A stretch of 64,000 nt of DNA from an uncultured delta proteobacterium (GTDB taxonomy: Bacteria > Myxococcota > Myxococcia > Myxococcales > Anaeromyxobacteraceae): positions 160,001 to 224,000 of the forward strand of contig CAWHDZ010000040.1 of the NCBI GenBank assembly GCA_963828255.1, written 5' to 3'. Below are positions 44,701 to 50,347 of this stretch, in pieces. Position numbers: made by a program. How positions within the stretch are numbered: the stretch's first letter is position 1; every line of letters starts with the position of its first letter.

Positions 44701-47700
44701 GCCATGAAGCACGGAGCCATCGACTTCCTGGTGAAGCCCTTTCCCTTCCAGGCCCTCGACGCCGCCGTGGAACGGGCCCTCACCACGGCCCGGACCCGCC
44801 GGCAGATCCAGGCGCTCACCGAGGAGCGGCGGGGCGGGGGGGAGGCGCTGGCCGGGCTGGTGGGGCAATCGGCCGCCATGGAGCAGGTGCGCAGCATGGT
44901 CTCGCGCCTCTCCGGGAGCGACTCCACCACCATCCTCGTCGAGGGGGAGAGCGGCGCGGGCAAGGAGGTGGTGGCCCGGGCCGTCCACTTCTCCAGCGGC
45001 CGCGCCGAGCGCCCCTTCCTCCAGGTGAACTGCGCGGCGCTGCCCGAGCACCTCCTGGAGAGCGAGCTCTTCGGCCACGAGCGCGGCTCCTTCACCGACG
45101 CCCACACCCAGAAGCGCGGGCTCTTCGAGAGCGCCGAGGGCGGCACGGTGATGCTCGACGAGATCGGCGACCTGCACCCCGGCGGCCAGGCCAAGCTCCT
45201 GCGCCTCCTCGAGAACAAGACCTTCCGGCGGGTGGGCGGCGTCACCGAGCTGCGGGCCGACGTCCGGGTCCTCGCCGCCACCAACGTGAACCTGGAGGAG
45301 CGGGTCGCCGAGGGGCGGTTCCGGGCCGACCTCTTCTTCCGCCTGAACGTCGTGCGGATCGTCATGCCGCCCCTGCGGGAGCACCCCGAGGACGTGCCCA
45401 CGCTCTGCGCCTACTTCATCGCCCGGTTCAACCACGAGATGAAGCGGCAGCTGAAGGGCGTGAACGCCGGGGCGATGCAGATGCTCCAGGCCTACCGCTG
45501 GCCGGGCAACGTCCGGGAGCTGCGAAACGTCATCGAGCGCGCCTTCATCCTGCACGCCGGGGCCGAGGAGCTCCGCCCCGAGCACCTCTCCCCGGAGCTG
45601 CGCGGCGCCGCCATCGCCGCGGCCGCGCGGCGCCCCGAGAAGCCGGTGGCGGTCCCCCAGGACGGGCTGGTCCTCGAGGACGCGGAGCGCAAGCTCATCC
45701 AGGAGGCGCTCGAGCGGTCCAGCGGCAACCAGTCCCGGGCGGCGCGGCTCCTCGGCATCAGCCGCGACACGCTCCGCTACCGGCTCAAGAAGCACAACAT
45801 GGGGTGAGCGAAGGGCTCTAGCCGGCCGCCAGCGGCTCCAGCGCGGTCCGCAGCTTCCGGCGGGCCCGCATCTCGAGCTGGCGGGCCCGCTCGCGCGAGA
45901 AGCCGAGGCGGGTACCCAGGTCCTGGAGCGAGGCCGGGTCATCGGCCATGAACCGCTGCTCGATGATGGTGCGTTCGCGGTCGTCGAGGCACGCGAGGGC
46001 GTCGGTCACGCCGCGGCGGACGCGGTCCGACTCGCGTGCGCAGGAGAGCCGCTCGTCCTGGAGGTCGTCGCCCGAGGCGATGCGGTCCACCGGGGAGGAA
46101 TCGCCACCCGGGGAGGGGGCGTCGAGTGACTGGTCCCGCTGCTCCATGCGGCGGGCGGCCTCGCGGACGTCGTCGGTGCTGACCCGGAGGCGCCTGGCCA
46201 CGCGGTCGTCGAGGTCGTCGTCGGCTCCGGCTCCGGCGCGGGAGAGTTCCCTGCGCGTGCGCCCGAGCGCGAAGAAGAGGCGCCGCTGGGCCTGGGTGGT
46301 GCCGAGCTTCACGACCGACCAGGACTGGATGACGTGGGCCTGGATGTAGGCCCGGATCCACCAGGACGCGTAGGAGACCAGGCGGATGCCCATGTCGGGG
46401 TCGAACTTCTGCACCGCCTTCATGAGCCCGAGGTTCCCTTCCTGGATGAGGTCGGGGAGCCGGAGCCCGTACCCGCGGTACCCGGAGGCGACCTTCACCA
46501 CGAAGCGCAGGTTGGCGGTCACGAGCGTGTGGGCGGCCCGCTTGTCCCCGGTCTCCCGGAAGGCGCGTGCGAGCGCCAGTTCCTCGTCCGCGGTGAGGAG
46601 CGGATGCCGACCCACTTCGGTGAGGTACGCAGCCAGGGACTCGTGCATGAAGTACCCAGGAGCACGAGGGATGCCAGAAGGCTGGACCCCCAATTGCCTC
46701 GAATGTACGGCCACATGCCGAGAACGAGGGACATGGCTAGGGTACCGGTCATTACCTTTTTACCGATCCCGAGAAGCGAAACTCCCCTGATGGGTCATCT
46801 CGCCCACCAATTTGCCCCCATCCGACGGCGGTCTGGGTTCTGACCCATCTGGGTCGAGGCAGCCCCTTGCGAAGTTCTTCCCGGCGAAGCATCGTGAATG
46901 AAATGCATCGGCCATGAGCGAACTCCGCCCGACCCCTCCATCGGCCGAGCCCAGCGCCGAACCAGAAGAGAAGGCGAGCCAGCTCGCCTTCGTGGCGCAC
47001 GAGATCCGCAACCCGCTCTCCACGGCGCTCTGGAGCGCGGAGTTGCTCGCCCGGATGACGCCCGAGGAGCGCGGGGGACCGCGCGGGGAGAAGCTTTCCC
47101 GCATGTCGCTCCGCGCCCTGACCCGGCTGCGGCGGCTCGTCGAGGACCACCTCCTCACTGCACGTCTCGACGTGGGCGGAATCCCGCTCGAGGTCGAGGA
47201 GATCCCGGCCCGCGAGATGTTCCCGGGGGCCACCGCCGTCGGGGCGGGCTCGCTCGAGCTGGAGCTGGAGTCGGGACTCTCCGTGGTGGCCGACCCCTCG
47301 CTCGCCCGCAGGGTCGTGGAGGGGGTGCTGCTCGCGGCGGCCCGTGGGGGCGCAGAGGTTCGCGTCACCGGCTCCCGCAAGGGAAGGGTGGCCCGCTTCC
47401 GCGTGGAGGGGGCTGCGGCCACCGAGGAACACCTCGCCGACCCCAGGAGAGGCGATCCGGGCGATACCCGCGGCGCGGCGCTGGCGATGCCCGTCGCGCG
47501 CCGGGCCTGCCTGCTGCTCGGCGGGGCCATCCGCGCCGAGGACGGGGTCTGGGTGCTGGAGTTGCCGGCCCCGGAGACCCCCCGTCGGCAGAGCTAGAGC
47601 TGCTTGACAGGGCCCGGGCCCTCCGCTACAAGTCCGCGCTCTCCAACCGTTTTCTGCAAGTCCTCCCCGGCCGGTCGTCGCGGGTCGGACCAATGCGAGG

Positions 47701-50347
47701 TCGAACATGGCTACTGGTCTCCTGGGTCGCAAGGTCGGCATGACCCACATCTTCACCGCCGACGGCGACAGCATCCCCGTCACCGTTCTCCAGATGGGCC
47801 CCTGCACCGTCATCCGCCGCAAGACCGCGGAGAAGGACGGCTACGACGCAGTCGTGCTGGGCTTCGTCGAGGTCGAGGAGAAGAAGGAGAAGCGGCTCAC
47901 CAAGGCGGAGGTGGGCGTCTTCAAGAAGGCCGGAACCGCGGTCTTCCGCCACCTCAAGGAAGTCCGCCCCCGCGACGCCAAGCTCCTCGGCGAGCTCAAG
48001 ACGGGCGACGTCCTCACGGTGGACCAGGTCTTCAAGCTCGACCAGCGGGTGGACGTCACCGGCGTGTCGAAGGGTCGCGGGTTCGCCGGCGTCTTCAAGC
48101 GCTGGGGGATGAAGGGCGCGGCCCGTGACTCCTCCACGGCCCACGAGCACCACAGGCACCCGGGCGCCATCGGGCAGCGCAAGACGCCCGGCAAGGTCTG
48201 GAAGGGCAAGCACCTGCCCGGCCACTACGGCGTGGACAACATCACCACCCAGAACCTGATCGTCGCCGGCATCGAGGCCGAGGGGAATCTCCTTCTCGTG
48301 AAGGGCGCCGTCCCCGGCCACGCCGACGGCCTGGTCTTCGTGGACACGGCATCCAAGGGGCAGCCCAGGGTCAAGAAGAAGCAGGAAGTCCGCGAGCGCG
48401 CCAAGCCGAAGGTGTGACAGCGGCGGCTTCAGCCGCCGCAGGAGCCACTCACGGAACGGTTCCGAGGAACCGGACCCCGGAAAGCGAAAGGGCTGGCGAG
48501 CGATCGCCAGCCCTTCTTTGCATCTCGTTCCCGGTGTTCGGGACGATCTAGTCGGTGGCTCCTGGGGCGCCTGAAGGCGCCCCTGTGTTCCCGCCCCGCT
48601 TGCGGTCCCGCTCCATCCGGTATCGCGCGTTCGGGTCCAGCGCCTTCTTCCGCAGCCGGATGGAGAGCGGCGTCACCTCGACCAGCTCGTCCTCGGCGAT
48701 CCACTCGAGCGACTTCTCGAGGTTCATGTCGCGCGGCGGGATCAGGAGGATGTTCTCGTCCCTGCCGGCGGCGCGGATGTTGGTGAGCTTCTTCTCCCGG
48801 CAGATGTTGTACTCGATGTCGTTGTCGTGCGAGTGCTCGCCCACGATCATGCCGCTGTAGACCTTGTCGCCCGGCTTCACGAAGAGCTTGCCGCGCTCCT
48901 GGCCGGAGAAGCAGGCGTAGGCGACCGTCTCGCCCTCGCGGTCGGAGACGATGGCGCCGGCCTGGCGCTTGTCGATGCGCCCCTGCCAGGGCTCGTAGCC
49001 GTCGAACTGCGAGGAGAGGATGCCCTCGCCGCGGGTGAGGGTGAGGAACTCGGAGCGGAAGCCGATGAGGCCCCGGGCCGGGACCCGGAACTGGAGGCGG
49101 GTGCGCCCGGAGCCGAGCGGCTGCATGTCCACCATGCGCCCCTTGCGCGGGCCGAGCGCGCCAGTGACCCCGCCCACGCCATCGACCGGCAGGTCGCAGA
49201 CCAGCAGTTCCATGGGCTCGTGGACCTCGCCGGCGATGGTCTTCAGGACGGGCTCCGGGTTCGACACCGTGAGCTCGAATCCCTCGCGCCGCATGTTCTC
49301 GACGATGACGGCGAGCTGCAACTCGCCGCGCCCGACCACCTTGAAGGCGTCGGGGGTCTCGGTGTCCTCGACCCGGATGGAGACGTTCTTGTAGGCCTCG
49401 CGGTGGAGACGCTCGCGGATGTTGCGGCTGGTGACGTACTTGCCCTCGCGCCCGGCGAAGGGGCCCTCGTTCACCCGGAACACCATCGACATGGTGGGCT
49501 CCTCCACGCTGATGCGCGGGAGCGCCACCGGGGCCGAGGGGTCGCAGAGGGTGTCGCCGATGCCGATCTCCTCCGCACCGGCGATGCAGACGATCTCGCC
49601 CGGGCCGGCGTCCTTCACCTCGACCCTCTTCAGGCCGTCATAGACGTAGAGGCGGACGATCTTGGCGGAGACGATCTTGCCTTCCTCGCGGATGACCGAG
49701 ATCGGGGCGCCCTCGCGGGCCACGCCGGAGGCCACGCGGCCGATGGCGAGGCGCCCGACGTACTCGTCATAGTCGAGGTTGTCGACGAGCATCTGCAGCG
49801 TCGGATGCTCCTCCTCGGGGGGCGCGGGGATGTGGGTCAGGATGGCGTCGAAGAGCGGCTTCAGCGTGTCCGACTCGAAGGCGCCGGCGACCGTGTGCGC
49901 GGCGCGTCCCTCGCGGGCGATCGCGTAGATGACGGGGAAGTCGATCTGGTGCTCGTTGGCGCCCAGGTCGATGTAGAGCGAGTAGACGAGGTCGAGGACC
50001 TCCTTGGCCCGCGCGTCCTGCCGATCGACCTTGTTGATGACGAGCACCGAGGGCAGCCCGAGGGCCAGCGCCTTGGAGAGCACGAAGCGGGTCTGGGGCA
50101 GAGGCCCCTCGGCGGCGTCCACGAGCAGGAGCACGCCGTCCACCAGGCGAAGCGCCCGCTCCACCTCCCCGCCGAAGTCGGCGTGGCCGGGGGTGTCCAC
50201 GATGTTGATCTTGATCCCGCCCCAGGTGACCGCGGTGTTCTTGGCGAGGATGGTGATGCCCTTCTCGCGCTCCAGGTCGTTCGAGTCCATCACCCGCTCG
50301 ACCAGTGTCTCGTTGGAGCGGAAGATGCCGGCCTGGCGGAGCATGAA

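Follow-up and report, generated by a model that had tools for sequence, protein, structure and literature searches.

A candidate ribosomal protein L3 leader resembling 23S rRNA helix 96 upstream of the solitary rplC gene of Anaeromyxobacteraceae

A conserved RNA motif of 41 nt lies immediately 5' of the Shine-Dalgarno (SD) sequence of the monocistronic rplC gene, which encodes ribosomal protein L3, in an uncultured member of the Anaeromyxobacteraceae (positions 47656-47696 of the window, the whole 64,000-nt stretch of contig CAWHDZ010000040.1 that was analysed). The core of this leader matches the loop of helix 96 (H96) of 23S rRNA, beside the sarcin-ricin loop, and the match is the only one in the rRNA of this genome. 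L3 is an early and essential protein of 50S assembly, and the leader probably represents an undescribed feedback control in which surplus L3 turns off the production of more L3.

The rplC locus and the parts of its leader

The genome contains a single L3 gene. The S10 operon, 50 kb from rplC, has the order tuf-rpsJ-rplD-rplW-rplB and does not include it. A promoter is predicted directly upstream of rplC (Table 1), from which transcription would start near 47639; a consensus promoter scanner called no promoter before rplC, because the -10 box is without the final T. The histidine-kinase-like gene upstream is found on the same strand as rplC in 28 of 30 family loci, and typA lies on the opposite strand, at most 1.5 kb from rplC, in 21 of the 30. 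From its predicted fold, the hairpin between rplC and typA is likely to form the 3' end of the rplC transcript. In four RNA runs compared with the locus, all of them contigs, rplC is covered in three studies; the leader is found in one contig only, which also spans the upstream gene.

The invariant core of the leader is a 3x1 internal loop, AC-[CAM]-UG opposite CA-[H]-GU, closed by C-G and U-A pairs. The third loop position is A in 64 of the 77 parsed family leaders and C, the rRNA letter, in the other 13. Folded alone, the motif adopts the structure given in Table 1 with an ensemble frequency of 0.896 and a z of only -1.71 against shuffles. The cap stem of this genome's leader contains one C-U mismatch.

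Table 1. Features of the rplC locus (window coordinates)
Feature	Position	Strand	Basis or remark
Histidine-kinase-like gene; its end is 7 nt ahead of the -35 box	46914..47597	+	Weak kinase matches, all below cut-off
Predicted -35 box, TTGACA	47604..47609	+	TTGACN-16/18-TANNNN pattern upstream in 79/80 family leaders
Predicted -10 box, TACAAG, 17-nt spacer	47627..47632	+	Same promoter pattern
5' strand of H96 mimic: GCA, single loop base, GUCC	47656..47663	+	Near-invariant in 77 parsed leaders; presumed counterpart 23S ~2723-2730
Family-specific cap: U/C mismatch, 5-bp stem, bulged G, short stem, variable 3-7 nt loop	47664..47686	+	All two-sided covariation lies here
3' strand of H96 mimic: GGAC, loop CAA, UGC	47687..47696	+	Presumed counterpart 23S ~2677-2686
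SD sequence GAGGU, abutting the closing helix	47697..47701	+	GAGG directly after the helix in 75/77 parsed leaders
rplC, ribosomal protein L3, sole copy, monocistronic	47707..48417	+	TIGR03625, 237 bits, above cut-off
GC-rich hairpin with short U-run between rplC and typA	48486..48519	+	Fold; not called by terminator scanner
typA (BipA), convergent, closing the rplC unit	48548..50422	-	TIGR01394, above cut-off

Conservation and covariation within the family

The family set, anchored on the L3 protein, comprises 80 rplC leaders from 79 genomes (78 distinct rows); another alignment, whose rows had been chosen by pattern and included one in reverse orientation, was left out. The core is present in 78 of the 80, compared with a mean of 7.05 and a maximum of 12 in shuffles. 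When the 80 rows are aligned on a 15-pair structure, 93.1% of the cells are paired and the covariation score is 0.112, a value reached by 0 of 500 shuffles; slid controls scored 0.044 or less. Two-sided changes occur at four pairs (27, 9, 8 and 1 sequences), all in the upper stem, and the cap exchanges include C-G/G-C in 27 sequences and C-G/U-A in 9. The seven core pairs show no two-sided change within the family, whose covariation is therefore uninformative on the core, and one upper-stem pair is unsupported, being unpaired in 60 of 78 sequences.

A model built from the family leaders gave one strong match, at rplC, in each of six family genomes (68-81.5 bits; next best there 20.2 bits) and nothing strong in 14 non-family genomes (24.6 bits or less). 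A loose pattern gave two further sites in the genome, with 0.39 expected; both apparently fall within coding sequence, the better one scores 19.9 bits by the model, and neither was accepted as an extra copy. No Rfam family matched the finding at its gathering score, and at E<=10 there were only unrelated matches (13 and 20 loci), none of them near the leaders. The preliminary description had reported a family-wide, single-copy motif with a covarying structure, no Rfam match, and a closing helix that touches the SD sequence. All of this held, with the covariation confined to the upper stem and GAGG at 47697 directly after the helix, ahead of the rplC ATG at 47707.

Resemblance to helix 96 of 23S rRNA

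A pattern with letters taken from the columns of the family leaders has one match in this genome's 23S rRNA, at H96, and none in its 16S rRNA. Any match was obtained in 3.9% of 1000 shuffled rRNA sets, which is not a blind figure since H96 was suspected before the pattern was written. In the genome's own H96, CUA-U-GUGU corresponds to the 5' strand of the leader and ACAC-CAC-UGG to the 3' strand; the E. coli numbering in Table 1 depends on an anchor that we take to be correct. Like the leader, the H96 internal loop has A-U and C-G pairs, a C-A-x loop, one opposing base and a U-A pair, whereas the outer pairs of the leader have other letters, its third loop base is mostly A in the family, and its strands are joined at the opposite end. 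The H96 loop reads C-N-C in all 21 Myxococcota 23S sequences, one of which carries a C-G for U-A swap as found among the leaders. The rRNA mimicry that had earlier been listed as not shown is thus now matched to a particular helix.

We take L3 to contact 23S rRNA at ~2679-2682 and ~2723-2733, and L3 and L19 are known neighbours. Our literature searches found no paper on nucleotide-level contacts between L3 and H96. According to the literature, uL3 is located at the H94-H97 junction in the human ribosome, and bL19 contacts H96. Imitation of an rRNA site is one of the traits of ribosomal protein leaders (r-leaders), and here the H96 match was computed, the contact with L3 is our own assumption, and that with L19 comes from the literature.

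Distribution in Myxococcota and other phyla

The relocation of rplC and the element itself, both earlier considered specific to the family, are phylum-wide in Myxococcota. In every sampled member of the phylum the gene is separate from the S10 operon. Many families have the core loop in front of it, usually with the rRNA-like topology, which is the reverse of that in Anaeromyxobacteraceae. Likewise, the earlier statement that the motif occurs in no other genome of the order is correct for the family scaffold but not for the core loop, which precedes rplC in 11 of 14 such genomes.

A general descriptor found the loop in 53 of the first 88 non-family leaders, on which it had itself been shaped and where about 6 (~6) would be expected by chance. 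Among 20 held-out leaders, for which a prediction was recorded beforehand, 18 have the loop, against a shuffle mean of 1.6 and a maximum of 6. The positives total 71 of 108 non-family leaders, and 65 of the 71 have the rRNA-like topology, with the 3-nt strand 5' of the 1-nt strand; the permuted topology is that of Anaeromyxobacteraceae and one other family (f3). The flanking pairs are swapped among the 71 (A-U in 42 and U-A in 29; U-A in 46 and C-G in 25); covariation of the core is seen only in this comparison across families, in which the descriptor itself demands that the core be paired. The median distance from core to SD sequence is 4 nt in the 66 positives with an SD call. The distribution is patchy: three families contributed 9 further leaders, none of which has the loop, and no leader from Myxococcus-like genera has it. 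A variant in another family (f14), permuted and with G-C for A-U, was fitted on 5 of 6 leaders but recovered in only 2 of 11 held-out ones, and is not counted as support.

Across GTDB, 63 of 101 pattern matches adjoin L3 and none adjoins L19. In this genome rplS, the L19 gene, begins about 14 nt (~14 nt) after trmD and has no leader. The loop is present in 3 of 30 Myxococcota rplS leaders, and in 2 of 30 rplS leaders from the genomes of the pattern scan, mostly of other phyla (shuffle mean 2.1).

Relation to L19 leaders and other r-leaders

The core loop of the rplC leader is also the core of two predicted L19 leaders, RF00556 and RF03130, whose L19 ligand is unconfirmed (Table S1, PMC7247131). 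In almost every one of its 34 alignment rows, the Firmicutes/Fusobacteria leader (RF00556; PMC1913097) has the same 3x1 loop, C-[CGC/CUC]-UG opposite (C/U/A)A-[A/U]-G, and it is described as a small hairpin with its own promoter beside the ribosome binding site, an arrangement like that predicted for rplC. It differs in preceding rplS, in its rRNA-like strand order (that in the window is circularly permuted), in the pair beyond C-G, which is U-A and not A-U, and in its third loop base, which is C in 34 of 34 leaders and A in most family rplC leaders. Yao and colleagues (2007; PMC1913097) state that they found no 23S rRNA homology for this leader. The RF00556 model left the rplC leaders unscored and gave only weak matches away from rplC in five genomes; it is narrow, having missed two Clostridia rplS leaders in which the loop is visible by eye. 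The L19-Flavobacteria r-leader (RF03130; Eckert and Weinberg 2020, PMC7247131), which in Flavobacteria precedes the gene for L19, shares an AAC-[CNC]-UG loop in the topology opposite to that in the window, and its model had no match in five Myxococcota genomes.

The rRNA-mimicking r-leaders for L1, L10, L20, S8, S15 and S6:S18 resemble the rplC leader in being structured 5' UTRs of r-protein genes that carry a copy of an rRNA site with the SD sequence adjacent. A conserved structure in such a 5' UTR is found here, and covariation supports it in the upper stem within the family. L3 is the ligand of none of the previously known leaders of Table S1, nor of the 20 new ones (PMC7247131). No obvious loop was visible in the opening rows of the L4-Archaeoglobi and S10-Clostridia alignments.

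Autoregulation by L3 and competing explanations

We think it reasonably probable, from the sequence comparisons above, that the mimic is bound by free L3, which would make the weak closing helix more stable and so keep the 30S subunit from entering. The gene would be transcribed from its own promoter into a short mRNA, with a hairpin in its 5' UTR; the lower half of this hairpin copies the H96 3x1 loop and its flanking pairs in circularly permuted form. When L3 exceeds its rRNA sites, the free protein would bind this copy and lock the 3-bp closing helix beside the SD sequence; loading of the 30S subunit would be prevented and translation of rplC would fall. In the folding model the closing helix is weak (median pairing probability 0.19 in 77 leaders) and SD pairing is the same with the core enforced (0.54 vs 0.54), which would fit steric blocking locked by a protein. 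An anti-SD switch was rejected because enforcing the core leaves SD pairing unchanged, and an attenuator because 0 of 77 leaders have a U-run between core and start and no terminator was called. The rplC transcript holds one gene, which we counted in favour of L3 autoregulation.

Which protein would read the loop? Autoregulation by L3 was the earlier proposal and is still the best reading, now strengthened by the H96 likeness. The ligand is nevertheless less certain than an argument from the only downstream gene implies, because the core is also that of the predicted L19 leaders and bL19 also contacts H96; with the same loop before rplS in Firmicutes and Flavobacteria, the loop alone does not name its ligand. 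Perhaps L3 and L19 (possibly L14) bind it cooperatively, as S6:S18 do on their leader, one module serving rplS or rplC depending on the phylum. The loop does precede two genes whose products both sit at H96, some rplC leaders of other Myxococcota families (f18, f25, f28, f33 and f34) share a U-A flanking pair with the Firmicutes L19 leader, and L19 assembly depends on L3 in the assembly map. We regard such joint binding as rather unlikely. Against it stands the third loop base: 64 of 77 family leaders have A there, but all 34 Firmicutes L19 leaders and all 21 rRNAs have C, a difference hinting that rplC and rplS leaders may be read differently. The shared core and the reported bL19 contact would also suit an L19 operator that moved before rplC, so that free L19 cross-represses L3 synthesis. 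This arrangement seems quite improbable: it would give no feedback on L19, with rplS leaderless here and the loop so infrequent before rplS in the phylum, and repression of L3 would be self-reinforcing if L19 needs L3 to assemble. Moreover, L19 as the ligand of L19 leaders is itself unconfirmed (Table S1, PMC7247131).

The remaining explanations dispense with r-protein feedback. Several lineages with a solitary rplC lack the loop, which is therefore dispensable, and the mRNA could be protected by a hairpin close to its 5' end; the leader might be a structured part of the UTR that governs translation or mRNA stability, or that binds another factor such as an assembly factor reading H96. This leaves unexplained that the stems vary between scaffolds and topologies but the unpaired loop bases, which are the same as in a protein site of the rRNA, are retained, and we consider this explanation improbable. 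A DNA-level operator or promoter part is more improbable by far: the motif is nearly invariant in the family and lies 14-49 nt past the -10 box, but it is this promoter spacing that varies while the SD spacing is fixed, and the two-sided pair changes and the strand order swapped between families also argue against it.

Implications

A broader scheme can be tentatively drawn, although we judge it unlikely as a whole. In every place where the H96-loop module is present, its reader would be L3, either by itself or together with L19. What are called 'L19 leaders' in Firmicutes and Flavobacteria would be misnamed L3-dependent switches coupling two unlinked operons. In Myxococcota, once rplC had departed from the S10 operon, the module would have been put to new use in two topologies, as an operator for autogenous control of L3. 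H96 also provides the rRNA counterpart for the L19 leader that was missed by its discoverers, and the circular permutations and exchanged pairs that occur in nature would outline the smallest binding site in the candidate leader. The finding offers a 41-nt candidate L3 regulatory RNA for which the rRNA site can be named; it comes from a phylum, Myxococcota, in which rplC was removed from the S10 operon and required control of its own.

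A leader that mimics helix 96 of 23S rRNA

The hairpin in front of the solitary rplC, the gene for ribosomal protein L3, is a real, conserved leader that mimics helix 96 (H96) of 23S rRNA. Immediately 3' to the sarcin-ricin loop, the 23S rRNA of this genome pairs ACAC-[CAC]-UGG with CUA-[U]-GUGU to form the H96 internal loop; the leader pairs GGAC-[CAA]-UGC with GCA-[A]-GUCC. The A-U and C-G pairs, the loop and the U-A pair are common to both, but the strand order is reversed (permuted) in the leader. A pattern drawn from the leader columns of the family (Anaeromyxobacteraceae, as judged by its named relatives) matches the 23S rRNA once, at H96, and nowhere in the genome's 16S rRNA; 3.9% of 1000 shuffled rRNA sets gave any match, with a pattern written after H96 was suspected and so not blind. 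The same pattern also matches 13 H96 sequences out of 20 from other Myxococcota.

The rplC locus and its relocation

rplC is the only L3 gene in the genome, is convergent with typA, and is absent from the S10 operon (tuf-rpsJ-rplD-rplW-rplB). A promoter-like TTGACA-17-TACAAG lies 5' of the motif, and a similar pattern occurs in 79 of 80 family leaders. Contigs from RNA runs cover rplC in three studies. In this genus the -10 box and its next bases (ACAAGTCC) repeat the motif's 5' arm; lying upstream of the predicted transcription start, the repeat is probably a coincidence. Elsewhere in the window, a low-complexity, AT-rich stretch of this GC-rich genome, near a restriction-methylase-like ORF, is possibly foreign DNA or an assembly artefact.

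Features of the rplC region and its surroundings, numbered along the window
Feature	Position	Remarks
-10 box and next bases	47627-47637	
Motif, GCA-A-GUCC ... GGAC-CAA-UGC	47656-47696	before rplC
Shine-Dalgarno sequence (SD), GAGG		directly 3' of motif
rplC start	47707	
Restriction-methylase-like ORF	53413-55641	label from sequence motifs
AT-rich stretch	57000-57850	

Within the sample the relocation extends across the phylum, because rpsJ was next to rplC in none of 92, 20 and 20 non-family loci with about 300-700 nt of upstream sequence (shortened by contig ends in three of them); as a control, rpsJ lay immediately 5' of rplD in 5/5 rplD loci. In family f16 (loci L149, L175, L409, L410) rplC follows the end of an ORF, presumably enolase-like, by about 15 nt and has no leader, and in family f18 (L152, L343, L351, L361) a tRNA gene lies no more than a few hundred bases from the rplC start.

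Conservation within and beyond the family

L3 was matched in 80 of 92 family genomes, which yielded 80 leaders from 79 genomes (no upstream sequence was present in one genome, and another carried two copies). The core occurs in 78 of these leaders (mean over shuffles, 7.05) and in 4/80 of the next windows upstream. Over the 15 pairs of the family alignment the covariation score is 0.112 (shuffles as high, 0/500; slid controls at most 0.044), and two-sided changes, in 27, 9, 8 and 1 sequences, are confined to the upper stem, all these figures being inflated by kinship. The seven core pairs are almost invariant, and one upper-stem pair fails. Across GTDB the exact pattern matched 101 stretches, 63 next to an L3 gene and none next to an L19 gene; the matches away from L3 look like scattered chance matches.

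The covariance model gave a single strong match, at rplC, in 6/6 family genomes. The preliminary description had found the motif nowhere else in the order, and for the family model this held, with no strong match in 14 non-family genomes; nevertheless 11 of these 14 carry the loop, and the earlier absence reflects the family-specific cap. Among 88 distinct non-family leaders, a descriptor shaped on these same sequences found the loop 5' of rplC in 53 (mean over shuffles 5.6, maximum 13). The descriptor was then frozen and a prediction noted before 20 new leaders were scored; 18 had the loop (shuffle mean 1.6), in a set from five families of which four had earlier positives. The 71 positives among 108 non-family leaders comprise 65 in rRNA strand order and 6 permuted, and their flanking pairs swap (A-U in 42 and U-A in 29; at the other pair, U-A in 46 and C-G in 25). 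The core ends a median of 4 nt 5' of the SD in the 66 non-family positives with an SD call.

Outside the family the distribution is patchy: the loop was found in 0/9 further leaders from three families, nor does it precede rplC in Myxococcus-like genera. In those of family f2 (L094, L095, L130, L132, L139) the SD is preceded by a short GCGC hairpin, its loop often beginning CAC, which is perhaps a reduced remnant. In family f14 (L145, L146, L172-L174, L392, L393) G-C replaces A-U in a permuted loop followed by a small CCGG hairpin, a variant present in 5/6 of the first loci and, among 11 held-out loci, in 2 by pattern and 4 by eye. All four loci of family f10 (L103, L127, L128, L129) share another conserved hairpin, GCGAUGACGG ... 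ACGGUCGC, directly before the SD in the last 60 nt 5' of rplC, possibly a second, unrelated rplC leader.

Relation to L19 leaders

The same 3x1 loop is present in the 34 rows of the Firmicutes L19-leader alignment (PMC1913097, supplement), for which the authors could not identify any 23S rRNA homology. The L19-Flavobacteria alignment reads AAC-[CNC]-UG ... A-[H]-GUU, and this loop is the feature by which its legend defines the family (PMC7247131, supplement). Table S1 of that paper gives the L19 leader as unconfirmed, and neither it nor Table 1 has an L3 entry; in the available portion of a 2024 review, uL3 is mentioned once, not as a regulator. In the literature searched, which left most subscription journals outside, we found no L3 leader and no paper joining rplC, Myxococc- and the S10 operon. 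Rfam L19-leader models do not score the rplC leader RNAs, which are therefore L19-leader-like in working but not members. Two Clostridia rplS leaders (L323, L329) have the L19-leader loop by eye and are unreported by RF00556 at E<=10.

Candidate ligand and proposed mode of repression

L3 probably contacts both strands of the H96 loop. In the ribosome bL19 contacts H96 (PMC11354259), and uL3 is placed at the H94-H97 junction of the human ribosome (bioRxiv preprint). L3 as the ligand is favoured by a predicted rplC transcript of a single gene and by the rarity of the loop before rplS in this phylum (just 3/30 leaders). L3 and L19 may instead bind jointly. If L19 depends on L3 for its assembly, repression of L3 by free L19 on its own would reinforce itself. 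At the third loop position 64/77 family leaders have A, whereas 34/34 L19 leaders and 21/21 rRNAs have C, a contrast which hints that rplC and L19 leaders may be read out differently. rplS here follows trmD by about 14 nt, and this genome (G000) has two near-identical trmD-rplS copies (C40:275036 and C23:10847), probably through bin contamination (6.6%).

The closing 3-bp helix adjoins the SD in 75/77 family leaders; the model makes this helix weak, with a median pairing probability of 0.19. An anti-SD switch is disfavoured, as SD pairing stays at 0.54 in the fold model with the core enforced, and attenuation likewise, as no U-run lies 3' of the core. Because a weak helix abuts the SD, SD pairing is unchanged and a U-run is lacking, the modelling favours steric repression over both, in which protein binding to the leader would block rplC translation. 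On balance we lean towards regarding the motif as the first bacterial L3 autoregulatory element.
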